The notes under the pieces: model-generated
The model's database searches: none
Told to the model about the DNA's origin: nothing
Seen by the model: the letters and a program-made list of their open reading frames with translations, nothing else
NCBI GenBank assembly: GCA_029261715.1
Contig: JAJDAT010000032.1
Span: 10,575 to 74,574 of the forward strand
Direction: 5' to 3'
Source of the DNA: Nitrospinia bacterium
Lineage (GTDB): Bacteria > Nitrospinota > Nitrospinia > Nitrospinales > JAJDAT01
DNA: 64,000 nt
Part shown: positions 33,143 to 61,533 of the stretch, in pieces
Layout of the letters: every line of letters begins with the position of its first letter
Position numbering within the stretch: the first letter of the stretch is position 1
Translations under genes and position numbers: made by a program

Positions 33143-35980
33143 TCAACAATTTGGTTTATTAAATCCGCCATTATCCAGAAAATCGCCTAAAACTGACGCC
33201 TGATTTCCTTGATCGCGATTTACAGCTATTCTAACTAGCTCTAAAGGAGTAGCATCCGGAAAAGCGCCGGGAAGTGCCCTATTCCTTGGAAGATCGGGTA
33301 ATTCATCAGGAAGCTCTCCAGGTTCCTCTTGTTCTGGAACACCTGGAAGATCGTCATTAAAAAGCTTTGGAAACAAAGTCTCAAGTAATTCTTCTAAACT
33401 AGTGAAGGTTGTTGTTCGAGTAGTGGGATTATAATTTCCACCATTGGTAATAATATTACTTGGACTGGCGCCTGAGGGAGAAATAGTATTTCCTGTTATA
33501 TTTACGTTACCACCTTGCGTTCTAATAAAACTATCAGAGCTTAAATTAAACCCTCCGCCATTAAGTCGATCAGAGTCGGCGAGAGCGGTAAATGTTGCAT
33601 TAAATCCAGAAACGTGGGCTTCTATACTGGAACCTGAAGTGAGACTGATATTTTCTTTTGCCGCTAATGAAAAATCATTATGAAAAACAATATTGGAGCC
33701 AATACCGAAGATATCGTCGCCGGACACAAAATTAGTTTTTTTATGTCCTAAATCAAGGTCGCCAAATTTAATGAAACCCGAGTTGAGAGCTCCCACATTT
33801 AACATTTTTCCCTTTAATGAAATAATTTCAGCTTGAGAGAGATTAATGTTACATCCTGGGGTCGCTATACATATCGTTTTGCCAGGAGTTTTTGGCAATA
33901 AAGAAATCGTTCCGCCACTTGGACCGTTTATGAAAGAAAAAGTACCAGTCACAATGGAAGTCGGAACGCCAAAAATATTACCGCCACTAGGAGTAAAACC
34001 AAATAATAAATTAAAACCATCAGCCGTAACCGTAGCGTTGCCGCCTGCGGTTGCTACGGTAACATTTGAACTTTGGTTGTAAGTTCCCGTTCCTGCATCG
34101 GCCGAAAATTTCTTGCCGCCAGTTGCGATATCTCCAAGAACGTTTATTCCAACACCTGTCAAACTAATTGCGGCGCCTCCTGAATTCATAGGACCCGTGG
34201 ACAAAGTACTTCCCGCAGCAAAGCTAATCGTCCCGCCTCTCGACATAATCTGTTGAGATGCAGTGAGAGTGGAACCTGCCGTTAAGCTAATATTACCGCC
34301 ATTAGAATCCAGTTTACCTAAGGTCAAAGCGCCGCCAGCAATAAAATTAATCGCCCCGCCCTGAGTTCGAAGCAGGTCGTTGGTGTCGTTAAAAGTAATG
34401 GCTCCATTTGTTGTTCGAAAGGTAGCTGAATTATTCGAAGTTGTTTGTAGATCAAATACATTGTCGGCTAAATCTTGAAAGGTGATTGTATTATTAGCTT
34501 GCAATACAATGTCATTAGTTGCATTCAATGCTTCTAAGGCCGCTACGGATATATTAAAAGTTCCCGATCCATCGGCAAAAAGAATCACATGATCTCCGGA
34601 AATTTGGGTATCTCCGGGATCTGACAGTGCATCTTTAATGACGATATTGTCCGGATCTAGAAGCAAAGTTCCCGTTTTACCATTAACGGCAGTGGTTATA
34701 ACCTCACCGTTAAAATCTAAAAATTGTTTACCAGATACTTCTACAAAACCTCCGTCTCCAGAATTGGCGCCGCCTTTCGCTTCGATAGCTCCAAAAAATC
34801 GTGTTGTATCGTCGGCCCAGTAAATTACCCGACCGCCATTGCCGCTGGTAATAGCGTTAGCTTTAACGATTGTGCCTGAACCAGCAGCCGTAATCGAAGC
34901 ATTTTGAACCGATCCTTTTCCCTGATAATCTCCGCCGATCAAAACCTCGCCACCACCTTGATCGCCAGAAACATCTATCATAGCGGTTCCAAATTGCCCT
35001 ACCTTATCGCCTAAGATATGAACGGTACCTCCGGTTTCTCCTGAGTCAGTTCCTGAAGCGTCTAAAGTTCCTTCGTTAGTCGCGGTTCCATTCGGTCCTG
35101 CTTCCAAATAAATAGCGCCATTTCTTTTAGAAACCGATTGCGCTCGAATAACACCCGTATTATTAACCACCGACCGAATCATTTTTTGCGCCGTATGCGC
35201 AGTCAACAGAACCTTTCCGCCATCTGCTTGGATTGTTCCGGAATTGAAAGCGCCATTCTCTATAGTATTTCCATCCTTATCCACAAACGAACCATCCACC
35301 GATTCCGTGATTGCAAAGTTGATCAAACCGTCACCTGAGAAATCCATGGTCGCCGCTTTACCTGAACCCAATGCAATCGATCCTAGGTTTGCCATCAACA
35401 TGCCTCGGTTTTCGGCGCGTGGCCCTAACAACCCGATATAACCGGAAGCGTTTATTTGTCCTTCGTTTATCACAGAAGCTAAAGGTTTAGACGGGTCTTG
35501 AGTAAAGCGATAATTACGATTCAAAAAATCTTGATCGGAAATTTGCAACGACGTTGCCATCAAGCTGCCAACATTAATGATAGAGTTTGGACCAAAAAAC
35601 ACTCCCGAGGGATTGGTTATAAAAATTTGTCCGTTGGCATTGAGCTTCCCTAAGATCGCTGTCGGGTCTTGACCAATCACTCTATTCAACGCAACCGAAT
35701 TAGAATTTGGTTGATTGAACTGCACCGATTCAGATTGACCAATATTAAACCCCTGCCAATTGGTTATCATTTGATTCGACGATTGATTTATCACCATATT
35801 TTGGGCGTTTGGTTGTTGGATATTTCCATTTCCCGCTACGATTTGGCCGTCTTGCGGCAACGCAAACAGCAAAGCTGGAAAATAACTCATCAAGAAAATC
35901 AAAAACCCAACCCAAAATGGAACCAAATAAGTTGGTAATGGCTTAATAAATTTAGAATCGTTTTTAATATTCATAGTCAA
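33143..35980 (-). CDS. TpsA-like exoprotein (filamentous haemagglutinin N-terminal/TPS domain), 945 aa
   Basis: Extended signal peptide. TPS domain NQMITNWQGFNIGQSESVQFNQPNSNSVALNRVIG...NGQIFITNPSGVFFG, a beta-helical Gly/Asn/Thr-rich body, and a GDGGFVEVSGK module. Confidence 0.9.
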   Translation of the reverse strand: MTMNIKNDSKFIKPLPTYLVPFWVGFLIFLMSYFPALLFALPQDGQIVAGNGNIQQPNAQNMVINQSSNQMITNWQGFNIGQSESVQFNQPNSNSVALNRVIGQDPTAILGKLNANGQIFITNPSGVFFGPNSIINVGSLMATSLQISDQDFLNRNYRFTQDPSKPLASVINEGQINASGYIGLLGPRAENRGMLMANLGSIALGSGKAATMDFSGDGLINFAITESVDGSFVDKDGNTIENGAFNSGTIQADGGKVLLTAHTAQKMIRSVVNNTGVIRAQSVSKRNGAIYLEAGPNGTATNEGTLDASGTDSGETGGTVHILGDKVGQFGTAMIDVSGDQGGGEVLIGGDYQGKGSVQNASITAAGSGTIVKANAITSGNGGRVIYWADDTTRFFGAIEAKGGANSGDGGFVEVSGKQFLDFNGEVITTAVNGKTGTLLLDPDNIVIKDALSDPGDTQISGDHVILFADGSGTFNISVAALEALNATNDIVLQANNTITFQDLADNVFDLQTTSNNSATFRTTNGAITFNDTNDLLRTQGGAINFIAGGALTLGKLDSNGGNISLTAGSTLTASQQIMSRGGTISFAAGSTLSTGPMNSGGAAISLTGVGINVLGDIATGGKKFSADAGTGTYNQSSNVTVATAGGNATVTADGFNLLFGFTPSGGNIFGVPTSIVTGTFSFINGPSGGTISLLPKTPGKTICIATPGCNINLSQAEIISLKGKMLNVGALNSGFIKFGDLDLGHKKTNFVSGDDIFGIGSNIVFHNDFSLAAKENISLTSGSSIEAHVSGFNATFTALADSDRLNGGGFNLSSDSFIRTQGGNVNITGNTISPSGASPSNIITNGGNYNPTTRTTTFTSLEELLETLFPKLFNDDLPGVPEQEEPGELPDELPDLPRNRALPGAFPDATPLELVRIAVNRDQGNQASVLGDFLDNGGFNKPNC

Positions 35981-36007: not shown

Positions 36008-38935
36008 TTAACATCCTGTCTCAGAACTCCCATTATCCAGAAAATCTCCCAAAACAGTCGATTGAATCGCATTCTCTTTATCTTCAATTCTATCTATAAT
36101 TTGCTCCACTGTATCATCGGGAAATTCACGAAAAAAATCTACGTTTGTATCTCCTGGACCACTCGGAATATCGAAGTCTTCTTCTAATTGATCAACTAAT
36201 ATTTCGAATAAAGCAGGCTCTAAAGTCTGAGCTAACGGACCAAATTGAGTCTCTGGCGTTACTCCCAATAGAATGACATCATTATTTATAAATATAAATG
36301 AATCCAATGCTGCGTCACTTGTAGAACCCAATAAAGGATCAAAAAATGGATCTCCTATAGAATCTAAAAACGGATCAAAAAACGGGTCAAAAAATGGATC
36401 ATCTGCAGCGTCACTTGTAGGTTCGGTGGCGCTTGTTGAATTCCCACCATTTGTATTAACTTGCCCAAAAGTATTTACAGTGTTGCCAACTAATGTCACA
36501 GCGCCGCCTCTTGTCGTGATGGAACTGTCTGTGCTCAATGTAAAATCCCCGCCATCAAATTGATCAAAGTCAGCCGTTGCGGTAAGAGTCTTACCAAAAC
36601 CCGAGATATGAGCTTCAATCCTTGTACCCGAAGTAAAACTAACATCGCCTAGAGCCTTAAAGCTAATATCCTCGTGAAATACAATCTTGGACGCGATACC
36701 TTCTATATTTTTACGAGAAATAAAATTAGTCTTCTTATGCCCTAAATCAATTTCTCCAAATGAAATAGTTCCCGAAAAAATATCGCCAATATTTAACGTA
36801 GTAGTTCTTAACGAATTTATCTCGTTTTGGCTTAAATCGATTGTACATCCCGTTGTTCCTACGCAAATCGTTTCGTCAACAACCGATGAAGCGATAGTAA
36901 TGCTATCGCTAGACCCAGATCCATTTATAAGCGAAAGTGGATTGGTAACTATGGAAGAAGGAAGTCCAAAAATATCTTCTCTATTGCCAGTAAGGCCGCT
37001 TTGAAATTCAAAACCAGAAGCAAATAAAGCCGCAGGCCCACCGCTGGTAGTGATTACAAAAGGGGCAAATTGAGTATAAGTTCCGCTACGATTGAGATCG
37101 AAATCGGCATTAGCAAAAAACGCCCCACCCCCTGTCATGATATTTCCTTTCACGTTTATTCCAGAGTGGGCATTTAAACTAACAGAACCTCCTGATGAAT
37201 TTATTGTACCGTGCGTACTAATAGAGGAACCGGCAACTAAATCAATATCGCCGCCATTAGACTCAATTTTTCCGACCGTCAATGTGAGTCCTGCTATGAG
37301 GTTAATAAAGCCACCCTGTGTCCGAATCATATCGTTGGTGTCATTAAAGGTAATGGGTCCACTGAATGTTTGAAATATAACTGAATTGTTTGAGGTTGTT
37401 TGTAAATCTAATACGTTGTCGCTTAAATCATTAATCGTAATTGATGTATTAGCTTCTAAAATAATATTATTAACTGCATTTAAATCTTCTAAGGCTTTCT
37501 CTGAAATAGTAAAAGTCCCAGATCCATCGGTAAAAAGGACCTCATGGTCCCCAGAAATTTCAGGATCAAAGTCGCTAGATAATTTATCCTCAATAACAAT
37601 ATCGTCAGGATCTAAAAGTAACGTACCAGTTTTGCCATTAGCCGCAGTAGTTACGACCTCGCCATTGAAATCCAAAAATTGTTTACCCGATACTTCCACA
37701 AAACCGCCGTCGCCTGAGTTGGTTCCACCTTTGGCTTCAATCGCTCCATAAAATCGAGTGGTGTCGTCGGCCCAGTAAATAACTCTACCACCGTTACCAT
37801 TGTTTATTGCGTTAGCTTTTACCGTGGTGTTAGAACCGCCAAAAGTCACCGCAGCATTTTGTACTGATCCTTTGCCTTGGTAATCGCCGCCAATTAAAAC
37901 TTCACCACCACCTTGATCACCGGAAACATCGACGATTGCTGTGCCTAATTGACCTACCTTATGACCTAAAATTCGAACGCTACCGCCGATCTCTCCAGAG
38001 CCGGTTCCTGAAGCGTCAAGCGTACCTTCGTTTGTCGCGGTTCCATTTGGTCCCGCTTCTAAATAGATGGCTCCATTTCTTTTAGAAACTGATTGCGCTC
38101 GAATAACCCCCGTATTATTAACCACCGAACGAACCATCTTTTGCGCGGTATGCGCGGTTAACAAAACTTTGCCACCATCGGCTTGGATTGTTCCTGAATT
38201 GAAGACTCCGTTGTCTACAGTCTTTCCGTCTTTATCCACAAACGAACCATCCACCGGTTCGGTGATTGCAAAGTTAATCAACCCGTCGCCGGAAAAATCC
38301 ATGGTTGCCGCTTTGCCCGAACCCAATGCAATCGAACCCAAATTTGCCATTAACATGCCGCGGTTTTCGGCGCGTGGTCCTAACAACCCGATATAACCAG
38401 AAGCGTTTATTTGACCTTCATTTATAACAGCGGCTAAAGGTTTTGATGGATCTTGCGTAAAGCGATAATTACGATTTAAAAAATCTTGATTGGAAATTTG
38501 CAACGACGTCGCCATCAAACTAGCTACATTGATTATTGAGTTCGGACCAAAAAACACTCCCGACGGATTGGTAATAAAAATTTGTCCGTTAGCGTTAAGC
38601 TTTCCTAAGATAGCTGTTGGGTCTTGCCCAATCACTCTATTCAGCGCAACTGAATTAGAATTTGGTTGATTGAACTGCACAGATTCGGATTGACCAATAT
38701 CAAACCCCTGCCAATTAGTAATCATCTGATTCGACGATTGGTTGATCACCATATTTTGGGCGTTTGGTTGTTGGATATTTCCGTTTCCCGCTACTATTTG
38801 GCCGTCTTGCGGCAACGCAAACAGTAGAGCGGGAAAATAACTCATCAAGAAAATCAAAAACCCGACCCAAAAAGGAACCAAATAATAGGGCAATAGTTTC
38901 ACCGGTTTAATATCGTTTTTTCTATTCACAGTCAA
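36008..38935 (-). CDS. TpsA-like exoprotein (TPS domain), 975 aa, tandem paralog
   Basis: The N-terminal roughly 445 aa are near-identical to the 945-aa paralog and the rest is collinear but diverged. Acidic DPFF repeats lie near the C-terminus. Confidence 0.9.
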   Translation of the reverse strand: MTVNRKNDIKPVKLLPYYLVPFWVGFLIFLMSYFPALLFALPQDGQIVAGNGNIQQPNAQNMVINQSSNQMITNWQGFDIGQSESVQFNQPNSNSVALNRVIGQDPTAILGKLNANGQIFITNPSGVFFGPNSIINVASLMATSLQISNQDFLNRNYRFTQDPSKPLAAVINEGQINASGYIGLLGPRAENRGMLMANLGSIALGSGKAATMDFSGDGLINFAITEPVDGSFVDKDGKTVDNGVFNSGTIQADGGKVLLTAHTAQKMVRSVVNNTGVIRAQSVSKRNGAIYLEAGPNGTATNEGTLDASGTGSGEIGGSVRILGHKVGQLGTAIVDVSGDQGGGEVLIGGDYQGKGSVQNAAVTFGGSNTTVKANAINNGNGGRVIYWADDTTRFYGAIEAKGGTNSGDGGFVEVSGKQFLDFNGEVVTTAANGKTGTLLLDPDDIVIEDKLSSDFDPEISGDHEVLFTDGSGTFTISEKALEDLNAVNNIILEANTSITINDLSDNVLDLQTTSNNSVIFQTFSGPITFNDTNDMIRTQGGFINLIAGLTLTVGKIESNGGDIDLVAGSSISTHGTINSSGGSVSLNAHSGINVKGNIMTGGGAFFANADFDLNRSGTYTQFAPFVITTSGGPAALFASGFEFQSGLTGNREDIFGLPSSIVTNPLSLINGSGSSDSITIASSVVDETICVGTTGCTIDLSQNEINSLRTTTLNIGDIFSGTISFGEIDLGHKKTNFISRKNIEGIASKIVFHEDISFKALGDVSFTSGTRIEAHISGFGKTLTATADFDQFDGGDFTLSTDSSITTRGGAVTLVGNTVNTFGQVNTNGGNSTSATEPTSDAADDPFFDPFFDPFLDSIGDPFFDPLLGSTSDAALDSFIFINNDVILLGVTPETQFGPLAQTLEPALFEILVDQLEEDFDIPSGPGDTNVDFFREFPDDTVEQIIDRIEDKENAIQSTVLGDFLDNGSSETGC

Positions 38936-38952: not shown

Positions 38953-40026
38953 TTAAGGAGTGCATCCTTGCGCTACTGCAGCAAAAGGAACATTAACAGG
39001 AGTATTAAACGCAACTGCTATATCTGGTCCTGCTGCGCTTACGAAATCGGATACGATAGAATCTCCTCCTCCCACATTGGAGTTTGATGCAGGTTGGGAA
39101 TCTTGTGAACTTGAAGTAGAGTCACCACTATCAGAAGAACTCGTGTCTCCAGAACTGGTACTCGAACTTGAATCAGAATCGGAACTACTGTCAGACTGTG
39201 AAGTCGATTGTTGAGTTGAGCCTGAGTCTTGTTTAAACATGGACGAAGGCAAACTGGTTCCAATCCGTCCCAGAACAACAGTACTGATGGAATTAAAATT
39301 ACTATTAGACATGGTCTGAGGAACTGATGGGGCTTGTCCCTGCGGAATTGTGCTCACGCTATTGGCTCCCACCAACTGGCTACCCGCAACATTAGGATCG
39401 ACATTGGAAGCGCTCATAGCTCCTGTTTTATTAGCCACAATCGTTTTTGTTGGAGAGGAGCTAATAAACCCAAAGGTACCTCTGGACGATAAGTTTGCAG
39501 TTGGCGTAACGACGCGAAAATTAGAATCTTTATTTTTTTGGCTTTTGTTAATGATGTACATAGAAAGACCACTAGCTACATTGATCAATCCTTGTCTTAG
39601 TTTTTTCCCCTTATTAACCTTGTAGGAACCAATTGACATTTTAGAATTTGGACCCAAAGCCAAAAGACTATTGTCTTTAAATTTTATTTTTAGCCGGCTC
39701 CCTCTTTTTGTGCGGAATCGGTCGGATGCATAAACTTCTTGTTTGAATTTGGCGCTTTTCCAGACAGCATTTGGATCGAATGAAACTGGTTTTATACTTA
39801 ATTTACCTGGAGTGGACTTGGCTACTGGTTCCGAACCTCCCGCCATCATTTCTACAGTTCCAATTATTCCAATAATCGTCCCAACCGGTTTTTCCTCAGC
39901 GGCCCAAGCAACAGATCCGAAATGTGAAGCTACAGACCCAAAATGTGAAATAACAAGCACAAAAATTGCCGACCAAAAAATACCGGGACCAGGGTTTGGA
40001 CGCGAAAAATTTATAGAGTCCGCCAT
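38953..40026 (-). CDS. Secreted FecR-domain protein (357 aa)
   Basis: Signal peptide, FecR-like core (DRFRTKRGSRLKIKFKDNSLLALGPNSKMSI...RGTFGF), and a Ser/Asp-rich tail ending AVAQGCTP. It is the first gene of the minus-strand operon, with a 17-nt gap to the tpsA gene. Confidence 0.75.
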   Translation of the reverse strand: MADSINFSRPNPGPGIFWSAIFVLVISHFGSVASHFGSVAWAAEEKPVGTIIGIIGTVEMMAGGSEPVAKSTPGKLSIKPVSFDPNAVWKSAKFKQEVYASDRFRTKRGSRLKIKFKDNSLLALGPNSKMSIGSYKVNKGKKLRQGLINVASGLSMYIINKSQKNKDSNFRVVTPTANLSSRGTFGFISSSPTKTIVANKTGAMSASNVDPNVAGSQLVGANSVSTIPQGQAPSVPQTMSNSNFNSISTVVLGRIGTSLPSSMFKQDSGSTQQSTSQSDSSSDSDSSSSTSSGDTSSSDSGDSTSSSQDSQPASNSNVGGGDSIVSDFVSAAGPDIAVAFNTPVNVPFAAVAQGCTP

Positions 40027-47726: not shown

Positions 47727-48431
47727 ATGTCGAAAAAACTGGAATGCCTCAAAAACGTTTCTATTTTTTCGGGAATGAACGACACCCACCTTGAAGAAAT
47801 CGCCTCGATCACCATAGAGAATAAGTTCAAAAAAAATAAAGTCATTTTTAGTAAAGGCGACCGAGGAAACGTTTTATTCATTCTCACCTCAGGTACCGTA
47901 AAATTATCTCTTTTTGACCAATCCGGTAAAGAAATGATTTTAAAAATGCTTTATAAAAACGACTTCTTTGGTGAAATGTCGTTACTAGACGAATTCTTTC
48001 GTTCCGCAACCGTTACTGCCGTTGAAGATTCACAAGCTCTTCTTATTTATAGAAACGAATTTATGCGATTAATTCACCAATTTCCAGGAATCGCTTTGGA
48101 AATGTTGAAAGTCTTCATACACCGTTTAAAAACGAGCGACAAAAAAATCGTTAGTCTTACTTTTTTCGACGCGTTCCGAAAAGTAAGTTCTACTGTCATC
48201 GATTTAGCGGAGAAAACCGGACGTCAGGAAGGAAAATACACCGCTATCGACTTAACGTTAACCCGCCAGGACCTAGCCAATATGATCGGCATGAGCCGAG
48301 AAACGTTAACTCGCATTTTGCAAGAATTACACTTTCGAGAAATTTTAAACGTTAGTAGAAAAAAAATAATCATTCTCGATCAAAAAGCTCTGGAAAATGA
48401 AATTGAAAACGCGCGAGTCCCAAAACTTTAG
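47727..48431 (+). CDS. Crp/Fnr-family transcriptional regulator
   Basis: 234 aa. cNMP-binding domain (FGEMSLLDEFFRSATVTA) and C-terminal HTH (RQDLANMIGMSRETLTRIL). No N-terminal Cys cluster. Confidence 0.8.
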   Translation: MSKKLECLKNVSIFSGMNDTHLEEIASITIENKFKKNKVIFSKGDRGNVLFILTSGTVKLSLFDQSGKEMILKMLYKNDFFGEMSLLDEFFRSATVTAVEDSQALLIYRNEFMRLIHQFPGIALEMLKVFIHRLKTSDKKIVSLTFFDAFRKVSSTVIDLAEKTGRQEGKYTAIDLTLTRQDLANMIGMSRETLTRILQELHFREILNVSRKKIIILDQKALENEIENARVPKL

Positions 48432-48577: not shown

Positions 48578-49675
48578 ATGTTTTCAAATATTTCCCGGAC
48601 CTTAAATTCAAATAAATATAAAAAGTGGACTTTGCTTTCCTTTTGGATGTTAGTTCTTTCGCTCAGTTGGCTAGTTGAAGCAAAGGCGGAAGAAGAACCC
48701 GTGGGAACAATCATTGGCGTGTCTGGGGAAATTTTATACAGAACTGCGGGTGACGATCCCGTCGCAAGTAAGGATAAACCTGGCGAGACTAAACTTGCTT
48801 CTTTTACGCCCTGGGAGAAAGTTAAGTTTAAACAACCTGTCTACGCTAAAGACGAATTCAAAACCTCAAAACGCAGTCGGCTCAAAATAAAATTTAACGA
48901 CAATAGCCTCATGGCGCTAGGCCCAAACTCAAAAATGCAAGTGGGCTCATATGTTTTCAGTAAAAAAAAGAAGCTGCGTCAGGGAGTGATGAAGATTTCG
49001 TATGGGTTATCTATGTACATCGTCAACAAAACCCAACGTAATAAAAATTCCAGTTTTAGAATCGTTTCGCCTACCGCAAATTTAGCGGCGCGCGGTACCC
49101 AGGGATATGTAAGTTCTTCCGATAAGATTACTTACCTGGCAAACCAAGCCGGAGCAATGGACTCCTCCAGCAGCGATCCAAATATCAAAGGGAATCAACT
49201 GGTCGGCGCGATGAAAAAAAATTCAATTCCGGCAGGACAACCGCCAACCCCCCCGACAAACTTGACAAATAACGACCTAAGCGCCGTTAGAAACGTTGTG
49301 ATGGGACCGATAGGTATTAATCCTAACAACCCAATAATTAAAGATTTAACTCAAACTGCCCCGGTTCAAAAGAAAAAAGCTGCAAAATCCAAAACAAGCG
49401 ATAAAAGCGGAGGTACAAAAGGCGACTCCAGCGAAGAAGGCGATAGCGAGAGTTCAGAATCTAGCGAAGGTGGGGATAGCGGTGATTCCGGTGGCGATAG
49501 CGCAGATTCTGGAGGCGACTCTGGAGGCGGAGATAGCGGCGGCGGAGATGGCGGAGGCTTTGCCGACAGTTTTACATCCACCGGTAGTTCCGGAGGCGGT
49601 GGTAGTGGCGGTGGCGACTTTGCTCCTGTTAACAATCCTTTTTCACCGGCTGCTCTAAGTTCCTGTTCCGGCTAA
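48578..49675 (+). CDS. Secreted FecR-domain protein (365 aa)
   Basis: Paralog of 38953-40026, with the same core (KRSRLKIKFNDNSLMALGPNSKMQV...RGTQGY). Gly/Ser/Asp-rich tail ending ALSSCSG. Confidence 0.75.
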   Translation: MFSNISRTLNSNKYKKWTLLSFWMLVLSLSWLVEAKAEEEPVGTIIGVSGEILYRTAGDDPVASKDKPGETKLASFTPWEKVKFKQPVYAKDEFKTSKRSRLKIKFNDNSLMALGPNSKMQVGSYVFSKKKKLRQGVMKISYGLSMYIVNKTQRNKNSSFRIVSPTANLAARGTQGYVSSSDKITYLANQAGAMDSSSSDPNIKGNQLVGAMKKNSIPAGQPPTPPTNLTNNDLSAVRNVVMGPIGINPNNPIIKDLTQTAPVQKKKAAKSKTSDKSGGTKGDSSEEGDSESSESSEGGDSGDSGGDSADSGGDSGGGDSGGGDGGGFADSFTSTGSSGGGGSGGGDFAPVNNPFSPAALSSCSG

Positions 49676-53100: not shown

Positions 53101-56100
53101 ACTATTTCCACTAGTGGCGGCAACATTCATTTAGAAGCGGATTCGGTACACAGTTCAGCGGGAGCCGCAGACGGAACCGGAGCTCTCACTACGGGGATTT
53201 TATCCACCAGCGGCGGCGCGATAACCTTGATCGGAACCGGTTTTACTCTGGGCGGAGCTATCAATTCCGGAAGCGGCAATATCAATATTGCCGAAGCCGT
53301 CAATGGAGGAGCCTTTAGCTTGGGTTCCCTGGATCTTAGCGACGCTGAGGCGGATTTAATCACCACTACGGGTACTTTAACAATTGGTCAAGCCACAACA
53401 GCAGGAACCGATGGAGCCGGAACGGGCGCAACAACCCTCAATGCTTCGGTAGTTACCATAAACACTATTTCCAATACTACGGCAAGCAATGTTGCCATTT
53501 CAGCCACAAGCAACATCACTTTTACGGGCGGGGCATCTACCTTCACCGGGAACCTTACCGTAAGTACCACCACCGGCGCCATCGCGGTTAATGTCGATGC
53601 CCGGTCAAATGGCGCCGTGACCATGACCTCTACGAGTTCAACTATAACCGTGGCAGCCGACGCTCAAATCGTTGCCGAAGACGACGCTACCGGATCAAGC
53701 GCATTGACTCTTACCGCTTCAGGCGCGGTAACACTGGGCGGAACCACCGGCGGTAATGGTACGGAGAACCTTGAAAATGAAGGAACCGGCAACGTTTCGG
53801 TGACGTCAGGCGGTCTTGTTCTTAGTGGAGTAAAAACCATCGGTACCGGAACTGGATCAATTATTATCGATGTTGGTAGTAACGACATCACCGACAACGA
53901 CTCCGCAGATAACGATTTCTTTTCAAATGGGGACGTTACCCTTACCATGGGCAATGTCGGCGCCAACACTGGCAACAACGCGCTCCGCTTAGCAAGCTCC
54001 GGTGGCGAATTAGGCAATACTTTGACCGTCAATATTAACGGAACCGGAAAAACCGCGTATATTTCGACGCACTCTACCGATGATCCGTTTAATACTATCA
54101 ACGTCACTTTGGCTGACGATCAAAGTGGTTTTAACTATGTCACCAGTCCAGCTGTGGGAACCGACACAATTAGCGGCGCGGCAGGAGCAAGTAAACACGA
54201 CCTTTCCTTTGATCTGAGCGATACCAACACGACCCTAAATTACACAATCACTGAAGCGGCCGCCAAAATGGATATCGTGTTGGGGTCCGGGGCCGGGACA
54301 GGAGCGATTACTCTCACCGCCGACGATATAGACATTAACGCCGTTTTGGGCGTTTCGGGCGGGTCTGTGACTCTTAAACCTAACGACACCACAAGAACCA
54401 TTGGTCTCGGCGGTGGAACCGGAGACTTCAATTTGTCCGACGCCGACATTGCCAACATTACCGACGGTCAAACCTCTATCACAATTGGCGCGGTCGGTGG
54501 CACTGGCGCGGTAGGTATCACTTCAGCTACATTCACCGATCCTATTACCATTCGTGGCGGGGCAATGACGGTCGAAGGTATCAGCGCGGCAGCTAATAAC
54601 GTCACATTAACCTCAACCAGTACCATTGCCGATACAGCAGGCGACGACACAACTGTCGACATCACAACCTCGGGAACATTAACGCTGACCAGTTCTGGAG
54701 CGATCGGGTCCACTGCTTCGAATTCGCTCAATCTTGATATAGGCAATTTGGCGATTACTTCCACGGGAGGAAGTGGGGCCGTTTTCATAACAGAAGCGGA
54801 CGCGCTCACCTTGGGAACAGTCAACGCCGGAACCGGCGCCATAACCCTATCAGCTGGAGGAAGTATTACCGATAACACCTCAGCAATCACTGCGGGGAAC
54901 CTAACTATCACGACGACAGCTTCTGGTGGCGCCATTGGCGCATCGGGAACAGCGCTTAATACGACGCTTTCGGGAACCTTGACGGCAACGGCGTCAACAG
55001 GTACAGGCGGCGGAATCTTTATAAGCAATACAGGTAATCTACTCATCGGGGCCGTCAACGCAGGCTCAACTTCCGGCGATACGGTAGAATTAATCTCAAC
55101 CACTGGTATGACCAACTCCAGTTCTGCGATCACGGCAGAAGATTTAACCTTAACGGTTTCCGGAGCAGGCGCTGCTATCGGCGCTTCCGGAACTAGCAAC
55201 GATATCAACATAACGTTGACCGGAACTTTAACGGCAACCGCTTCAAATGGAGCAGGAGGAATCTTCGTTGGCGAAACCGGAGCCATGCTGGTAGGAGCCG
55301 TTAACTCCGGTACCGGCAATATGGAGTTCACCACGACTACTACCTGGGACAACACATCCGGTCTCACTGTAACGGGCGCGGCGTTAACCATCACCGCCGA
55401 TACTGGCGTTGGTCTTAACGAGAGCATAACAACTACCGGAGCGGTTATCATCGACGCTGACTCAGGCGGCGAGGGGGACGGCAATTTCGATATTGCTACT
55501 ACCAAGACATTAAACAGTGGTGGTAATACCATGTCGATTACATCCGCCAACATCATCCTGACTGGTAATCTTAATTCCGGAGCGGCCGCTACAACCTTGT
55601 TAGTTTCCGATGGGGGAACCATGGGGCTAGGCGGAGGCGCAGGCACTTGGTCCTTAGATGATGCAGAGCTTGGACGAATCACCGCCACAGGTTTAACTAT
55701 AGGTGACGCCACCAACGGCAACATAACAGTAGACGGTATCACTACCGGCAATAGCGACCAAATTACCGGAACGGTAACTTTAAATGCTACAACGGCTGCA
55801 GGGACGATCACGTTCAACGGGGGCACTTCAACATTTAATGCCTTAACCGCCAATGCCGGAAATGGGATTAACGTTAATATCGACCTTGATACCATTGTCG
55901 GAGCTCTCACCTTCGACGCCGATAGCGATAACAACCAGAGCGGAGCTTTTTCAGTCGCTACATTGACAACGGTCGCCACTAACAATAGCGCTATCAATGT
56001 CACGGCTCACACCTTTGATCTTAGCACTGCAACCTCCACTCTTGACGCCGGGTCGGGCGATGTTACCCTATTACAATCTTTGGGAGGGAATACCATTAGC

Positions 56101-59100
56101 GTAGGTTCCGCTGCTGGAACTTTTAACGTAGACGATACGGAATTAGGCGCTATTACCACTACCGGAACCTTAATCATTGGCGACTCAAGTTTATCCAGTG
56201 CGATTACCGTGGATACGGTAGCCGGCGGGGCCAAAAACTTCTCTTTGCGAACCGCCAGTACGATTGATGACGCTGGCGATGCTGGGTCACATTTAACAAC
56301 TACTGGAACATTGTCATTGACTTCTAGCGGAGTGATTGGTTCTTCGGGGCAGGGATTGAACATCGATGTCGCTTCGGTCACGGTGACGCGTACCGGAGGC
56401 AATCACGTAACCTTAAGAGACGCTGGAACCAGCGACACGACTTATAACATAACAACCGACGGCGCAGGAAATATTTCCGTAACCCAAACCGCTAACAACA
56501 TGATCCTCGCCGGGTTATCTACTACTGGAACTTTTTCAAGTATTGCCAATACTGGATCAATTTCTGAGACGGCAACTTTAACTGTTGGCGGTCAAGCGAC
56601 TTTCAATACTACCACTGTGGGCCAGTCGACTACACTCAACACCAGTACTCATGCGTTTACCGGAACCATAATATTTAACACTACAAACGCGGCGATTGAC
56701 AATGGAACAAACGCCATTAGCTTTGGAACGTCCTCTATCGGCGGAACTTTAACTGCAACCACGGGTGGAACCATAAGTCAATCTGGCGCGTTAACCGTTT
56801 CAGGAACGAGTTCGTTCATTACCGACGTTGACGATCAAGCAATTACTTTAAGCAACACATCCAATGCTCTCACGGGAGCGGTTAGCTTTACCACTCAAAC
56901 AGCGGGCGGCAGTACCGGAAACGTTACTATCGATAACGGAACGACTAATTTAATTTTAGGCGCTTCTACGGTTCGTGGAACGTTGACAACCACTTCGGGC
57001 GGAACGATTACCCAATCGGGAGCTTTGACCGTCGACTCCACGTCTTCTTTCACCACCGACGTTGCAGGTCAATCAATCACTTTAAGCAATACGTCTAATG
57101 CCCTAGCTGGCGCAGTGAGTCTTTCCACCACCGGAGTGGGCGACGCGACACTGGATAATGGAACAACGGCATTAATATTAGGAACCCTGGGAATCGGTCA
57201 AAACTTAGCGGTCACGGCGGGTAACGCTATTACCGACACAGGCATTATAACGGTTGGCGGCACAGCCAGTTTTACAACAGACGTCGCAGGTAATAACATC
57301 ACTCTCGATTCCGGCAACCTCGTTACCGGAGCGGTTAGTTTTACCACAACAGGAGCGGGTACTGCCTCGTTTACGAGCAATACCACTCTCAATTTAGGTA
57401 CTGTTAGCACGGGAAGTTCTTTCACCGCCACTTCAGTTTCTGTCATTAATACCACAGCCGATATTAATACCGGAGGAGCATTGACATTAAACGCTTCTAC
57501 AGGAGTCAATCTAAGCAATAACGCCACTGCGGCTGGAACAATTACTATCGACACGGATACCGATAATAATGGCAATGGAGATTTTACGATAAGTTCATCA
57601 GCGGCTCTTTCTTCCGGCGGTAACACGATCTCAATTACGGCAAATGATATTGATTTAAGTACCTCGGCAAGCGCTGCAATCAACAGCGGAGCAGCCGCGA
57701 CAACCTTATTAGTGTCCGATGGAGGAACGATTGGATTAGGTGGTACTGCGGGCGACTGGACGTTAAGCGGCTCAGAATTAGAAAAAATTACTGCGACTGG
57801 TTTGACCATTGGCGGAACCACGAATGGCGACATCACGATCAACGGCATCACTGCGGCTAATAGCAATAATATTTCGGGAACGTTGACATTAAACGCAACT
57901 GGAGGCGCTGGCAGCGCCACGTTCGACACAACCGCTTCGACTTTTAACGCCTTAGCGGTCAATACCACCGACGAAATAGTAAACAATGTAGCCGTAACCA
58001 CCGATACAGGCGATCTCTCTTTAATCTCCACCGGGCAAGTTTTTGATGTATTTATTCAAGGAGCCTTGACTTCTGCTGGAGCCACAACGATCAGCGCTGC
58101 GGAAGCGGTCTTTTTCTCGGCTGCGGGGAGCATTACTGGAACGGGTTCCGGGGCAGTATCGCTTACTGCAAATAGCGATAATTTGAACGGCGATGGCACT
58201 CCTGGCGCCGGAGATACGGTCTTTATGACGTCGGGTTCTTCCATCAACGCTGGCAGCGGAACCATTACCATAACCGCGACGGGAGCCAACGCTGACGCGA
58301 TGACCCTCGATACTATTACGACTACCAATTCAAGCGGGTCGGCGATCACAATCAACAGTCGCACCAGTGTGACCTTAAACGGCAACGTTACTGCATCTGG
58401 CGGAGTAACCATAGATACCGACGTTAACGCCAATGGAGTCGGAGATTTCACAATTGCCTCTGGTCAAACTCTTAACACCAACGGCGGCGCTCTATCTATC
58501 ACTGCCAACGACGTAACGATCACCGGTAATTTGAATTCTGGTTCCGGCGCAACAACTTTCTTAGTATCTGATAGCGGAACTATAGGATTAGGCGGCACAG
58601 CCGGAAATTGGACGTTAGACGCCGCCGAGTTGGGAAGGATAACGGCAACAGGACTCAACATTGGCGACAACAACGACGGTGATATTACTGTTAATGGTAT
58701 TACAGCAACCAACAGCAACGGTATTTCCGGAACTCTTTCGCTAACAACGGGTGGATCGACTACCTTTGCGACAGGCGAATCCATATTCAATGCGCTTTCG
58801 GTCAGCGCTGTAAACGGAATCAATATAAATATCGATGTCGGGGCAGATACCGGAGCCATCACGTTGAACGCAGATAGCGACAACGATGGAACTGGCGCCT
58901 TCACAATGACGGCTAATACCGACTTAGAAACGATCAATCAAAATATTTCTATCACATCCTCAACATTCGTCATCGATACAACAGGAACCGACGCTTCTAT
59001 AATAGCCGGTAGCGGCACAGTTTCAATTAAAGCCAGTAATTCGAGAACTATCGGTTTAGGCAGTGGGTCCGGCAATTTAAGAGTCGACCAATTAGAATTA

Positions 59101-61533
59101 CAAAAAATCAACGCATCGGCTTTAACAATTGGAGACGCAACTTCCGGAGGTAACGTTAGAGTAAACGGTATCACTGCTACAAACAGCGATACCATTGCGG
59201 GCGATATCACTTTATTGTCCAACGGATCTATTACTTTTGCGGGGACAAGCGAGTTTTATAACAACGTAATCGCACAAGGCGATTCTGTAATCGTTGACGG
59301 TAGTTTAACCACCACTCAAAAATCTGGAAATTTAATATTAGGCGTTTCTGAACTTGCTGGCACCTTTGGCGACAACTCAGGAAGCTTCACCGTCGATATC
59401 ACAGTCAACGGAGTTTTAGTGTCCAACGATTTCTCAGTTTCGTCGACTACGGCTTGGGTTGATACAGGAATCACGATCAATGCAGGGGATTCAATTGTAA
59501 TCACCGCTACGGGTACGGTCGATTTAGGTGGAGGCAACATTCTTCCCAACGGTCCTGATGGCAGCCAACAGGGAGAAGATTTAATTGACGCCCTCAATGA
59601 TGCAGCATCTGTTCAAGCTGACTACACGACTCTTGGAGCATTGGTCGGTAAAATCGGCGGCACCGGCACTACAGCCGACGGCACCGGATTTTACATAGGT
59701 TCCAGTTACAGTTCGACTGGAAATATCAGCTTGAGCGGTAAAACTGGAGTGACTTTGAACGAAAGCGTTACCGCAAACGGCGCCGCATCTATTGACGCCG
59801 ATTCCGACAATAGTGGAGCAGGAACCTTTACGATTGCAGACAGTAAATCATTATCGACCGTTAACGACACTATCGGCATCGTAGCAGCCGATATAGATTT
59901 ATCAACCAGCGGAACCATCAGCGCTGGCACCTCTTCGGTAAGCATCGACACATCTACCGTTACAACCTTAGGACTCGGCGATACGGCCGGAGTCATGACC
60001 ATTTCTGGATCGGAACTTGGAAGAATCACTGCCAACACCATGACCATCGGCACAACGACAACATTGGGAGCCGTAACCGTTGACAATATTACAGCCGCTA
60101 ACAGTAATAATATTGCAAGCACGTTATTAATCAATTCTAGCAGCTCAGTAACCTTTGATACCGCCGCCTCTACATTTAATGTTTTATCTGTAGACGCACT
60201 CGGGGGCATCACGGTCAATCAAGCATTGACATCCGATACCGGCGATTTAACCTTAGACGCCAATACCGGAACGTTAACTACAAACGCAAGCGGAACACTG
60301 AGCGCAACTGGAGCATCGACCAACGTAACTTTGACCGCTGACGCAATCGTTTTGGGAGCGGCAATAACCGGTTCAGATACTTTTACGCTTCAAGCTTCGA
60401 CAGCAGGCAGGACTATTGGTATTGGCGCTGGCGCCACAGGACTGGTGAACTTGGACGCAACAGAGTTCGCTTTTGTTACTGCGGCTAGTTTTACTTCCGT
60501 AGTAATTGGAGCCAGTGGAGCTACTGGAGATATCGATTTTAATACCACAACAATTTCCAAAAACCTGACGGTACGCGGCGGGGCTTTTGACAACAGTAGC
60601 GGATTGAGCAACGTTACGGGAACTTTTTCGGCAGAATTGACCGCTACTTCGACGATTAGCGCTTTAACTTCTTCCTCAACTATTTCCATCGACATGGCGG
60701 GTAACGCGCAAGTACTGAATATCGGCGGCGCATTAATGGCTTCCGCCGCTATTAACATAGCTTCCGACGACGACATTATTTTTACTGTCGTCACAGCAGA
60801 TATCACTTCCACGACTGGAGGCATCAATTTAACGGCAGACAGCGACTCCAATTCCGATGCTGGAAGCGGCGGAGCCATCACTTTAATTGATAACGGAACC
60901 GACGGCATCATCATCGACGCTGGCGATGGTGACATTGCATTGAAGGCTGATGAGGATATCCGTTTGGGAAGATTGGTCACAACCAGTAGCACCGACACAG
61001 CGGTTGTATTGACCTCGGCGAGTGGAAGCATCATTGATGACGGCGACTCCGGTAGTCCAGATATTGAAGCTAAAACCGGACGATTGGTGATCGACGCAGC
61101 AACCGGTATCGGTTCCTCAGGAACCAAAGGGGCCAATGCTCTTGAAGACGGCATCGACATAGAAGTCGCTTCTCTAGATGTTGATAACACGACATCTGGT
61201 GATATCCTTTTAAATGAAACCGACGACGTGTTTCAATTCAATCTAACCAATTCTGGGGGTGGAAGCACTACACTAAATACCGATGGCATTATAACGGTGC
61301 CAACTACAACCACCGAAACCACGACTACTACGGAAACGACGACTGAAACAACTACAACTGAAACTACAACAACGACTACTACGGAAACTACAACAACGAC
61401 TACTGGAACTCAAATTGACCCAGCAGTATTGACTTCTTTAGGCGTAACTCAAGACACGGTAAACAATGCCGTTCAAAGTACCTTTGTGACCAGTTTTGGA
61501 GACAATGGCGGAGCTGGTGGTGGTGGTTGTTAG
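50176..61533 (+). CDS. Giant TpsA-like exoprotein/adhesin (3785 aa)
   Basis: TTG start after AGAGGA. Extended signal peptide, TPS domain (NQLITNWNSFNIGQSEHVQFNQPNANSTALNRVMG), two GDGGFVETSGK modules, a long Gly/Thr/Asn/Ala-rich repetitive body, a LecA-like insert, a Thr/Glu tract and a terminal Cys. Confidence 0.92.
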   Translation: MQRQPNNLSVSRVLKNRFNKILAVFLIYMIGGFPTLVFALPQDGQIVSGQGTIGLPSSNQMVINQNTNQLITNWNSFNIGQSEHVQFNQPNANSTALNRVMGQDPSSIMGRLSANGQVFLSNSSGIIFGQNSRVNVGGLMATTLGISNEDFLNRNYHFTQDESKPLAAILNQGIIEAGQVGLLAPRVENQGKIIASLGNVALSSGEAAILDFDGSGLINFEITEPVNGEVKDTDGNVVESGVINSGFVKAHNGNVILSAHQARGMVRSVVNNTGIIEANNVVKKGGRVFLIGDRVKNSGSINVTGTESGQTGGTVHILGNEVNISGGTIDASGEAGGGTILIGGDKQGQNPNIQNATNTTVSESAVIKADAINNGDGGKVIIWAENSTKVYAVISARGGANGGDGGFVETSGKKFLDVTKAADVSSPKGKAGTWLLDPTNIEIVSGPGNGDGSQVSVTTIETALNAGTSVHIVTSGQGLEEGSITVSTAILKSSGGNTSLTMTAHGDIIVNQSITSTNGTLDVNLIAGSNVLINAAIATNGGNLLADAGATNLPANISGSYTPAARISGAAVELPKIEVKADITTGGGDVTLGQFKTKSHSLIGGGTYTKENVAKADILIENASISTGGGDFKTNGATVNLNQTVINTDVGNINLDSNIGTPTLTLSANPDFNPILLSIPSINIGSNSSLTSLGGDITLSSNAAELIIVEEPVLTINIEGNASITTEGGNILIDGGDNSIVLVAGNLSVANPNGVGGTIQVLGTYVGITGDAELDASGDEGGGIILVGGDYQGKNEDVRNADRAFIASNASLKADALRIGNGGKVILWANDVARFYGSISAKGGATSGDGGFVETSGKNTLEFRGDVDITAANGDLGTLVLDPQDITIADGSGGADDTQVSGDSTALFADGGAVTFTISEQTLEGLTGNIILQATQDIIINDLTTDGVLNLSNLTSGESFVLQAGRHITFNNTANTISTSGGNIHLEADSVHSSAGAADGTGALTTGILSTSGGAITLIGTGFTLGGAINSGSGNINIAEAVNGGAFSLGSLDLSDAEADLITTTGTLTIGQATTAGTDGAGTGATTLNASVVTINTISNTTASNVAISATSNITFTGGASTFTGNLTVSTTTGAIAVNVDARSNGAVTMTSTSSTITVAADAQIVAEDDATGSSALTLTASGAVTLGGTTGGNGTENLENEGTGNVSVTSGGLVLSGVKTIGTGTGSIIIDVGSNDITDNDSADNDFFSNGDVTLTMGNVGANTGNNALRLASSGGELGNTLTVNINGTGKTAYISTHSTDDPFNTINVTLADDQSGFNYVTSPAVGTDTISGAAGASKHDLSFDLSDTNTTLNYTITEAAAKMDIVLGSGAGTGAITLTADDIDINAVLGVSGGSVTLKPNDTTRTIGLGGGTGDFNLSDADIANITDGQTSITIGAVGGTGAVGITSATFTDPITIRGGAMTVEGISAAANNVTLTSTSTIADTAGDDTTVDITTSGTLTLTSSGAIGSTASNSLNLDIGNLAITSTGGSGAVFITEADALTLGTVNAGTGAITLSAGGSITDNTSAITAGNLTITTTASGGAIGASGTALNTTLSGTLTATASTGTGGGIFISNTGNLLIGAVNAGSTSGDTVELISTTGMTNSSSAITAEDLTLTVSGAGAAIGASGTSNDINITLTGTLTATASNGAGGIFVGETGAMLVGAVNSGTGNMEFTTTTTWDNTSGLTVTGAALTITADTGVGLNESITTTGAVIIDADSGGEGDGNFDIATTKTLNSGGNTMSITSANIILTGNLNSGAAATTLLVSDGGTMGLGGGAGTWSLDDAELGRITATGLTIGDATNGNITVDGITTGNSDQITGTVTLNATTAAGTITFNGGTSTFNALTANAGNGINVNIDLDTIVGALTFDADSDNNQSGAFSVATLTTVATNNSAINVTAHTFDLSTATSTLDAGSGDVTLLQSLGGNTISVGSAAGTFNVDDTELGAITTTGTLIIGDSSLSSAITVDTVAGGAKNFSLRTASTIDDAGDAGSHLTTTGTLSLTSSGVIGSSGQGLNIDVASVTVTRTGGNHVTLRDAGTSDTTYNITTDGAGNISVTQTANNMILAGLSTTGTFSSIANTGSISETATLTVGGQATFNTTTVGQSTTLNTSTHAFTGTIIFNTTNAAIDNGTNAISFGTSSIGGTLTATTGGTISQSGALTVSGTSSFITDVDDQAITLSNTSNALTGAVSFTTQTAGGSTGNVTIDNGTTNLILGASTVRGTLTTTSGGTITQSGALTVDSTSSFTTDVAGQSITLSNTSNALAGAVSLSTTGVGDATLDNGTTALILGTLGIGQNLAVTAGNAITDTGIITVGGTASFTTDVAGNNITLDSGNLVTGAVSFTTTGAGTASFTSNTTLNLGTVSTGSSFTATSVSVINTTADINTGGALTLNASTGVNLSNNATAAGTITIDTDTDNNGNGDFTISSSAALSSGGNTISITANDIDLSTSASAAINSGAAATTLLVSDGGTIGLGGTAGDWTLSGSELEKITATGLTIGGTTNGDITINGITAANSNNISGTLTLNATGGAGSATFDTTASTFNALAVNTTDEIVNNVAVTTDTGDLSLISTGQVFDVFIQGALTSAGATTISAAEAVFFSAAGSITGTGSGAVSLTANSDNLNGDGTPGAGDTVFMTSGSSINAGSGTITITATGANADAMTLDTITTTNSSGSAITINSRTSVTLNGNVTASGGVTIDTDVNANGVGDFTIASGQTLNTNGGALSITANDVTITGNLNSGSGATTFLVSDSGTIGLGGTAGNWTLDAAELGRITATGLNIGDNNDGDITVNGITATNSNGISGTLSLTTGGSTTFATGESIFNALSVSAVNGININIDVGADTGAITLNADSDNDGTGAFTMTANTDLETINQNISITSSTFVIDTTGTDASIIAGSGTVSIKASNSRTIGLGSGSGNLRVDQLELQKINASALTIGDATSGGNVRVNGITATNSDTIAGDITLLSNGSITFAGTSEFYNNVIAQGDSVIVDGSLTTTQKSGNLILGVSELAGTFGDNSGSFTVDITVNGVLVSNDFSVSSTTAWVDTGITINAGDSIVITATGTVDLGGGNILPNGPDGSQQGEDLIDALNDAASVQADYTTLGALVGKIGGTGTTADGTGFYIGSSYSSTGNISLSGKTGVTLNESVTANGAASIDADSDNSGAGTFTIADSKSLSTVNDTIGIVAADIDLSTSGTISAGTSSVSIDTSTVTTLGLGDTAGVMTISGSELGRITANTMTIGTTTTLGAVTVDNITAANSNNIASTLLINSSSSVTFDTAASTFNVLSVDALGGITVNQALTSDTGDLTLDANTGTLTTNASGTLSATGASTNVTLTADAIVLGAAITGSDTFTLQASTAGRTIGIGAGATGLVNLDATEFAFVTAASFTSVVIGASGATGDIDFNTTTISKNLTVRGGAFDNSSGLSNVTGTFSAELTATSTISALTSSSTISIDMAGNAQVLNIGGALMASAAINIASDDDIIFTVVTADITSTTGGINLTADSDSNSDAGSGGAITLIDNGTDGIIIDAGDGDIALKADEDIRLGRLVTTSSTDTAVVLTSASGSIIDDGDSGSPDIEAKTGRLVIDAATGIGSSGTKGANALEDGIDIEVASLDVDNTTSGDILLNETDDVFQFNLTNSGGGSTTLNTDGIITVPTTTTETTTTTETTTETTTTETTTTTTTETTTTTTGTQIDPAVLTSLGVTQDTVNNAVQSTFVTSFGDNGGAGGGGC

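Follow-up and report, generated by a model that had tools for sequence, protein, structure and literature searches.

Two secretion clusters with cysteine-ended products

The stretch of DNA analysed here (the window) consisted of 64,000 nucleotides of the Nitrospinia bacterium contig JAJDAT010000032.1 (assembly GCA_029261715.1, positions 10,575 to 74,574). It carried two gene clusters for two-partner secretion (TPS), in which three long open reading frames (ORFs) encoded TpsA-like exoproteins of 945, 975 and 3785 amino acids (aa), referred to as paralog A, paralog B and the giant. All three proteins ended in a cysteine directly before the stop codon. A FecR-domain ORF, whose product had a single cysteine at position -3, lay directly upstream of each TpsA cluster. 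The coordinates of these and other features are listed in Table 1.

The three exoproteins had an N-terminal TPS domain after a Sec signal peptide and a beta-helical passenger, and a TpsB gene was found nearby. The Pfam TPS domain (PF05860) was matched in paralog A (E = 2.7e-33), in paralog B (E = 3.2e-32) and in the N-terminal 408 aa of the giant (E = 6e-37). TIGR01901 also matched all three ORFs, with E values of ~1e-21 to 1e-23, and DUF5649 was matched in the giant. A sequence search of the PDB revealed that the nearest solved relatives were EtpA (8vba), the Adhesin chain 2odl (E = 2e-40), which we take to be the HMW1 pro-piece, and 4i84/4rm6, a heme/hemopexin-binding protein that is presumably HxuA. 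The nearest relatives overall came from metagenome-assembled genomes labelled Nitrospinota, Nitrospinales, Nitrospinaceae or Nitrospina. Judged by these matches, the three ORFs are genuine TpsA exoproteins (type Vb secretion) and belong to a Nitrospinota-centred subfamily of TPS exoproteins.

Paralogs A and B shared 65% identity over their full length, and BLAST aligned them with the first ~800 aa of the giant at ~40% identity. No BLAST alignment of the short paralogs with the giant extended to the C-terminal ends, and the tail motif was common to both. A sequence-only reading of the window had stated that the bodies of the proteins diverged strongly and that the tail was kept; this was correct for the giant against the short paralogs and incorrect for the short pair. 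The tails it had quoted, …LGDFLDNGGFNKPNC, …LGDFLDNGSSETGC and …SFGDNGGAGGGGC, were exact. A 943-aa database protein (P0006), from the same contig as P0001, which is the database protein of the window itself, had a tail identical to that of paralog A. In the AlphaFold2 (AF2) model of paralog B, a confident, high-pLDDT beta-helix (residues 44-835) was followed by a disordered segment (840-908) and a low-confidence helical tail (905-965), and then by coil up to the cysteine.

Within the giant, the module after the TPS domain was duplicated (residues ~25-790 and ~686-1315). Both segments could be aligned with the short paralogs, at 40% and 32% identity, and the motif GDGGFVETSGK was present twice. 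Just before the tail of the giant was a Thr/Glu-rich low-complexity run (TTTTETTTTTETTTETTTTE…), at the position of which other homologs carried Pro-, Ser- or Thr-rich runs.

Table 1. Features of the window, numbered from its first nucleotide
Feature	Coordinates	Strand	Length	Remarks
TpsA paralog A	33143..35980	-	945 aa from TTG; 943 aa from likely ATG at 35974	Signal peptide, TPS domain, beta-helix, Pro/acidic linker, conserved tail
Paralog A, terminal Cys945 codon	33146-33148			
TpsA paralog B	36008..38935	-	975 aa	
Paralog B, terminal Cys975 codon	36011-36013			
FecR-like partner 1	38953..40026	-	357 aa	Signal peptide, FecR/PupR-type beta-sandwich, ~100-aa Ser/Asp-rich disordered linker, tail …VNVPFAAVAQGC-TP
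FecR-like partner 1, Cys355 codon	38962-38964			
FecR-like partner 2	48578..49675	+	365 aa	Tail …DFAPVNNPFSPAALSSC-SG
FecR-like partner 2, Cys363 codon	49664-49666			
Giant TpsA	50176..61533	+	3785 aa	TPS domain, long beta-helix with DUF5649 repeats, Thr/Glu-rich linker, tail …NNAVQSTFVTSFGDNGGAGGGGC
Giant TpsA, Thr/Glu-rich run	~61380-61460	+		Residues ~3703-3745
Giant TpsA, sole Cys3785 codon	61528-61530			
TpsB transporter	62571..64000, runs past window end	+		POTRA_2 and ShlB barrel; only TpsB in the window
Crp/Fnr-type regulator, cyclic nucleotide monophosphate (cNMP)-binding	47727..48431	+		Pfam cNMP_binding E = 4e-23, HTH_Crp_2
Resolvase	26761-27321	-		
Large serine recombinase	29077-30864	+		
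Protein with C-terminal TPR repeats	31175-33115	+	646 aa	
Beta-ketoacyl synthase, two FAD/amine-oxidase-type oxidoreductases, short-chain dehydrogenase/reductase (SDR)	40452-45842	+		
GIY-YIG nuclease-domain small ORF	61669-61974	-		

The terminal cysteine of the TpsA family

A scripted recount agreed with the sequence-only reading that all three TpsA ORFs end in Cys-stop and that the giant has one cysteine in 3785 aa, at position 3785. Paralog A contained cysteine only at 704, 710 and 945, and paralog B at 691, 697 and 975; the additional C-x5-C pair of each short paralog and its contexts (TICIATPGC and TICVGTTGC) had been given exactly. The cysteine codon was TGT in all three genes, and the next codon was TGA in the 945-aa, TAA in the 975-aa and TAG in the 3785-aa ORF. 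The use of all three stop codons gave no sign of stop-codon recoding or of selenocysteine after the cysteine.

About 65 of the best 120 homologs of the 975-aa TpsA ended in cysteine, and most of the others were truncated or had a different, K-rich tail. After pooling of all sets, 70 distinct Cys-ended tails were obtained. In 67 of the 70, the cysteine was preceded by G, N or D, and a hydrophobic F/L-x-x-F/L patch was usually located 11-16 residues upstream. Short Cys-tailed TpsAs of ~530-565 aa occurred in L053 and L059. In the full-length alignment A3 (n = 18 sequences) the column of the terminal cysteine (C973) was invariant. Cysteine made up 0.23% of residues in the TpsA family. The background was low: 22 of the 1598 other stop-terminated ORFs of the collected loci (~1%) ended in cysteine, and 6 of these 22 were frameshifted C-terminal pieces of TpsA. 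These results showed that the terminal cysteine is real, highly non-random and family-wide.

Among the terminal-Cys TpsAs, 14 had one cysteine and 38 had three, and the internal pair of the three-Cys proteins was almost always 5-6 positions apart (C-x4-C or C-x5-C). In the short paralogs the C-x5-C pair was 236-285 residues from the end, and it was missing in many homologs. Such a pair would be expected to close locally, so that the terminal thiol would be left without an intramolecular partner. As read from these alignments, the conserved TpsA tail is a segment of ~35 aa after a disordered linker, ending in an obligatory unpaired cysteine.

The tail did not correspond to a known sorting signal. 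No C-terminal domain was matched in the TpsA tails by NCBIfam (E <= 0.1) or Pfam, and no sortase-type gene was found among the ORFs scanned from 26.7 to 64 kb of the window. The protein stopped at the cysteine, with no hydrophobic helix or basic cluster, and the earlier statement that the tail is unlike LPXTG, PEP-CTERM, GlyGly-CTERM and MYXO-CTERM was thus borne out. The cysteine was also placed differently from that of a CaaX prenylation box, which has exactly three residues after it, being the last residue in TpsA and followed by two residues, rarely by one or three to five, in the FecR-like proteins.

In metagenome assemblies, a single frameshift often broke up a long TpsA gene (L022/L040, L041, L043, L046 and L004). 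Split in this way, TpsAs look Cys-less in the called products, which is a trap for automated censuses.

FecR-like proteins with a near-terminal cysteine

The Pfam FecR domain was matched in FecR-like partner 1 (E = 4e-10) and partner 2 (E = 1e-9), which shared 45% identity. The single cysteine at -3 was in the contexts …AQGC-TP and …LSSC-SG. Among close FecR-like homologs, 26 of 29 had a cysteine at -3 or -4, the exceptions being mostly fragments, and other cysteines, if any, were confined to the signal-peptide region. In an alignment of 19 sequences C355 was one of 41 invariant columns, and the consensus of the tail was [DE]F-x-x-V-N-x-P-F-x7-C-x-x.

When 1.84 billion representative proteins were searched exhaustively with a profile, 4713 FecR-type matches were obtained. 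Forty-four of these had E <= 1e-30, of which ~35 had a cysteine in the last 2-10 residues and the remainder were mostly fragment-like. The weaker-scoring, generic FecR-domain proteins had no near-terminal cysteine, and the Cys-tailed FecR-like proteins thus formed a discrete subfamily.

In the AF2 model of the FecR-like protein, a signal helix was followed by a beta-sandwich predicted with confidence (residues 49-252), by a linker without order (267-337) and by a tail of low confidence; the signal peptide began at about residue 14. Foldseek analysis of the domain revealed similarity to 4m0n, 4m0h (BDI_1681) and PupR 6ovk_R, with E ~1e-7. The linkers of the FecR-like proteins were Ser/Asp/Gly-rich. 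The best NCBIfam matches (LipL45 and Lsa33) and the FecR equivalog were far under the curated cut-offs. Since the FecR domain stood alone after a signal peptide, with no cytoplasmic anti-sigma part, the proteins were not assigned to the FecR anti-sigma class. Neither an extracytoplasmic function (ECF) sigma factor nor a TonB-dependent receptor was found among the scanned neighbours of the FecR-like genes, which included the Crp regulator, TpsA and lipid-type enzymes.

Co-occurrence of the two cysteines

Co-occurrence was investigated in 29 loci around FecR-like homologs (species genomes) and 79 TPS-domain loci (metagenomes). ORFs were called, their products were classified with hidden Markov models, and 54 deduplicated complete TpsAs were entered in a 2x2 table. 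With a FecR-like neighbour, 27 TpsAs ended in cysteine and 3 did not; without one, 3 ended in cysteine and 21 did not. The association, which the sequence-only reading had raised, was strongly positive (Fisher's exact p = 6e-9, a value that overstates the number of independent events, the Nitrospinota sample being phylogenetically clustered), and it was seen across at least seven tail classes.

All six off-diagonal cases had an explanation in a frameshift, a contig end or a gene arrangement unlike the others. The apparently Cys-less TpsAs of L022/L040, L041, L043 and L046 were frameshifts, and their continuation ORF ended in …QSTFVQDFTSP[TA]E[AS]GC. The TpsAs of L016 and L039 were at contig ends, the FecR-like gene of L043 was cut by the contig start, and the contigs of L056 and L057 began at TpsA, with the upstream region uncovered. 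In L083, the complete TpsA was encoded on the other strand within a differing arrangement, and the contig end truncated the main TpsA.

The canonical gene order in relatives was TpsB, FecR-like and then at least one TpsA. In related Nitrospinaceae, plain TpsB-TpsA operons without a FecR-like gene (e.g., L033 and L034) encoded TpsAs with K-rich, Cys-free tails. The Cys-less FecR-like protein P0144 and its paralog (locus L119) were encoded in a polysaccharide locus without TPS genes.

The window TpsB matched Pfam POTRA_2 and ShlB, shared 46% identity with the TpsB of L003 (tblastn, E = 3e-103) and contained no cysteine in its visible 476 aa, and the minus-strand TpsA pair had no TpsB of its own. 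Across the loci, TpsBs had no conserved mature cysteine, and several had none at all. One clade of these TpsBs, that of L003, L012, L017 and L021 (~780 aa), had an N-terminal extension of ~200 aa before POTRA with no Pfam match.

Other genes around the clusters

The small GIY-YIG ORF separated the giant TpsA from TpsB and was encoded on the other strand. The resolvase and serine recombinase genes were just upstream of the first TPS cluster, and phage-integrase and D5-primase genes were found beyond the TpsAs in the syntenic loci L001 and L002, which suggests a mobile or island-like setting. The two TPS clusters were separated by the beta-ketoacyl synthase, oxidoreductase and SDR genes; in L001 these genes, with an acyl carrier protein (ACP) gene, adjoined the FecR-like gene on the opposite strand. 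The TPR protein was encoded convergently to the 945-aa TpsA. Elsewhere TPR repeats also accompanied the module as part of the CHASE2 cyclase, and in S. meliloti the TPR protein SMb20495 is a target of the Crp-type regulator Clr.

A proposed tail-to-tail disulfide tether

TpsA and the FecR-like protein had the same layout, in which a globular part and a disordered linker were followed by a tail with one obligatory C-terminal thiol. Both partners are predicted to be Sec-exported, and they are co-encoded when TpsA has the terminal cysteine. We tentatively propose, with a confidence that falls a little short of an even chance, that a tail-to-tail intermolecular disulfide tethers TpsA to a periplasmic FecR-like stopper or adaptor.

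In this proposal, the two C-terminal cysteines would pair as an intermolecular disulfide in the oxidising periplasm or at the TpsB pore. Because both thiols are at the extreme C-termini, the product would be an almost unbranched tail-to-tail chain, and its disordered linker could occupy the TpsB channel. The folded FecR-like domain would be unable to pass TpsB and would stay in the periplasm as the stopper or adaptor. The filament would hence be kept on the cell surface, and reduction or proteolysis could free TpsA. The predicted structures make threading through TpsB plausible, since in both partners the globular part is predicted with confidence, the linker is disordered and the tail is of low confidence.

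The sequence-only reading had proposed covalent capture through the terminal thiol. A disulfide to a partner is the form of capture best backed by the comparative data, while its chemistry is something that we infer. TpsB was rejected as the disulfide partner on account of its missing conserved cysteine, and the periplasmic domain of CHASE2 was rejected with the cysteines of that protein located only in the cytoplasmic cyclase part. No description of a TpsA/FecR-like cysteine pairing was found in literature on the topics of TPS, FecR/CHASE2 and Nitrospina filamentous hemagglutinin.

Comparison with known anchors and FecR-type domains

In HMW1, a cysteine pair within the last ~20 residues forms an intramolecular disulfide, and the HMW1/CdrA hook is recognised by two cysteines within ~20-30 residues. 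HMW1/HMW2 of Haemophilus influenzae are tethered to their TpsBs (HMW1B/HMW2B) via more than one C-terminal cysteine, and HMW1 requires no third protein (PMC13192263, citing Buscher 2006). In P. aeruginosa, CdrB retains CdrA by means of a 'cysteine hook' at the CdrA C-terminus (PMC7616799; bioRxiv 10.64898/2026.07.13.738186). In view of these precedents, the earlier statement that the classical TPS model includes no such role went too far.

Like HMW1/HMW2, which are tethered by C-terminal cysteines, the present TpsAs would be surface-retained TPS exoproteins. Unlike them, they have one cysteine as the last residue, a loop is impossible in the giant, and a dedicated FecR-like protein with a matching cysteine is present. 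CdrA is likewise a fibrillar TpsA, and its retention is coupled to a cyclic-nucleotide messenger, cyclic di-GMP (c-di-GMP). However, the CdrA hook is inside CdrA, which is released by the LapG protease under LapD/c-di-GMP control, whereas the present module has no LapG/LapD and contains a FecR-like protein, often a CHASE2 class III cyclase, and a Crp-type regulator.

The hook class is defined by more than one C-terminal cysteine closing a loop. With a single cysteine as the last residue, the present TpsAs lack this loop-forming set and, from their sequences, are outside the HMW1/CdrA hook class. By analogy, we infer that the proposed tether would be an intermolecular version of the HMW1/HMW2 and CdrA cysteine anchor. 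Anchoring of TpsA by cysteine is itself already known; the new element is a named candidate partner, the FecR-like protein, for cysteine capture.

The PupR domain binds a receptor of the outer membrane at the periplasmic signalling domain of that receptor. It has been crystallised in complex (6ovk). The FecR-like partner matches Pfam FecR, and its predicted fold is similar to the C-terminal cell-surface signalling domain of PupR (6ovk_R). In contrast to FecR/PupR, it has no cytoplasmic anti-sigma domain and has a long disordered linker ending in cysteine.

Evidence against the tether and alternative explanations

With a distant FecR-like protein of L091 as the query, a larger subfamily was found, ending in …FCI[QNG], with the fuller motif …[ST]xFCI[QNG] (FCIQ-type). 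A few of these proteins carried the source label Gammaproteobacteria. In the FCIQ-type modules, the FecR-like gene was accompanied by a CHASE2 cyclase gene with divergent transcription and by genes for one or two ShlB-type barrels (TpsBs), and neither the barrels nor the periplasmic part of CHASE2 offered a cysteine. A sub-variant had ~16 extra residues after the cysteine (…FCVGLLKxxxxxxxxxFG).

Several points weigh against the tether. A cysteine was present in the last six residues of 86 of 108 FCIQ-type proteins, and yet the FCIQ-type modules (L114-L118; also L083 and L091) usually had no TPS-domain TpsA nearby. One adhesin fragment adjoining an FCIQ-type module had no cysteine. In L083 and L091, which have a TpsA, both contigs ended inside the TpsA gene. 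By this distribution, the FecR-like cysteine is older and broader than the TpsA cysteine and has, or had, a role without an adjacent Cys-tailed TpsA; since the FCIQ-type keeps it in such modules, that role may be wider than TpsA pairing. The FecR-like cysteine may serve homodimerisation, another attachment or the capture of partners encoded elsewhere, and the Nitrospinota TpsAs may have come to exploit its chemistry later. In addition, AF2 confidence was low in both tails, and the sample was clustered as described above. One FecR-like gene may precede two TpsA genes (in the window, L001 and L037), and the stoichiometry is therefore not simply 1:1. The case for the tether is also wholly comparative and is drawn from assemblies of uncultured organisms.

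The older and broader distribution of the FecR-like cysteine keeps two rivals alive, homotypic disulfides and a non-protein modification. In the homotypic case, TpsA-TpsA or paralog-paralog tail-to-tail dimers or bridges would form on the surface, and the FecR-like protein would dimerise separately. This would agree with exactly one unpaired cysteine per protein and with the several TpsA genes that may follow one FecR-like gene, and the FecR-like cysteine in modules without an adjacent TpsA fits a FecR-FecR role. However, it leaves unexplained that terminal-Cys TpsAs are confined to loci with an adjacent Cys-tailed FecR-like gene and that the related TpsAs of plain TpsB-TpsA operons are Cys-free, and we consider it unlikely.

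The cysteines could instead be attachment or ligand sites, for a lipid, for a thioether or thioester link to the envelope, or for a shared metal or cofactor, with the enzyme encoded elsewhere. The small residue before the cysteine in both tails (G, N or D in nearly all TpsAs) and the position of the tails after flexible linkers, as in many modification sites, would suit this explanation, as would the very stereotyped cysteine motif that the FCIQ-type keeps without an obvious protein partner. We nevertheless give it a low probability, because no modifying enzyme was conserved in the examined neighbourhoods, the tail matched no known sorting or modification motif, and the oxidising periplasm would favour disulfide formation by default.

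A classical hook of the HMW1/CdrA type, with the C-terminal cysteine anchoring TpsA directly in or to TpsB, is suggested by EtpA and the Adhesin chain among the nearest solved relatives (8vba, 2odl) and by the cysteine tethering of HMW1 and CdrA (PMC13192263, PMC7616799). Against it, the sole cysteine of the giant makes an intramolecular loop impossible, and many homologs lack the C-x5-C pair that the short paralogs carry ~240-285 residues before the end. A disulfide version of the TpsA-TpsB hook is refuted by TpsBs that lack cysteine, and the classical hook is very improbable. Chance or an assembly or annotation artefact, for which the frequent frameshifts in long repetitive TpsA genes might speak, can be dismissed, as ~70 distinct Cys-ended tails came from independent assemblies, frameshifted TpsAs recovered the tail in the shifted frame and the background rate was ~1%.

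A possible link to cyclic-nucleotide signalling

The Crp/Fnr-type regulator gene was 147 bp upstream of the operon of FecR-like partner 2 and the giant TpsA. It was kept beside the FecR-like gene in L004, L006, L009 and L035 (>90% identity) and in L008 and L019 (46-51%). In many Nitrospinota loci TpsA was followed by a gene whose product of ~755 aa combined CHASE2 and a class III cyclase with TPR repeats; this gene was absent from the window. CHASE2 cyclase neighbours were found in L041 (18492-20756), L008, L019, L022/L040, L023, L043, L046, L053, L059, L062 and L064/L065. The L008 operon comprised TpsB, Crp, FecR-like, Cys-ended TpsA and CHASE2-cyclase genes. The CHASE2 cyclase and Crp in the module hint at a signalling role for the tethered pair.

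Related arrangements have been reported. In S. meliloti, the outer-membrane beta-barrel NsrA acts through the CHASE2 cyclases CyaD1/CyaD2/CyaK and cAMP on Clr, whose targets include the periplasmic FecR-domain protein SMc02177 and a TPR protein (PMC5498481, PMC7529298, PMC13001267). L008 is similar in having a TpsB barrel, FecR-like, CHASE2 cyclase and Crp in one operon, whereas no TpsA or terminal cysteine is reported in the NsrA pathway and the present window has no CHASE2 cyclase. The Burkholderia 'BiofilmReg' operon encodes a response regulator, a LysM/FecR protein and a CHASE2 histidine kinase (PMC5192318). It likewise has a secreted FecR-domain protein beside a CHASE2 sensor, but it differs in having a LysM domain and a histidine kinase as its output, and neither TPS components nor a C-terminal cysteine are reported for it. 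These published FecR/CHASE2 pairings support a signalling role without establishing it.

We give a modest chance, well below that of the tether itself, to the whole chain from TpsA to Crp, in which the disulfide-linked pair would be the input arm of a new cell-surface signalling system. The surface TpsA filament would be covalently tethered via the TpsB pore to the periplasmic FecR-like adaptor, and the adaptor would report binding or pulling of the filament to the periplasmic CHASE2 domain of the class III cyclase. The resulting cAMP/cGMP would act via the Crp-type regulator encoded beside the operon. The FecR-like/CHASE2 cyclase/TpsB trio would then be an ancient core, also present in Gammaproteobacteria-type genomes without TpsA, and the Cys-tailed TpsA would be a Nitrospinota add-on plugged into this trio.

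Significance

Nitrospinota are major marine nitrite oxidisers, and their surface biology is essentially unstudied. Retention and release of TPS exoproteins are understood in a few pathogens only (HMW1, FhaB and CdrA), and little is known of what CHASE2 sensors bind or which proteins they work with. If the tether proposed here is true, it would be a third, genetically separable anchoring solution, consisting of a covalent, redox-reversible link to a dedicated stopper. FecR-domain proteins are widespread, uncharacterised companions of TpsB-type transporters and CHASE2 sensors, and the tether would also give them a testable role.

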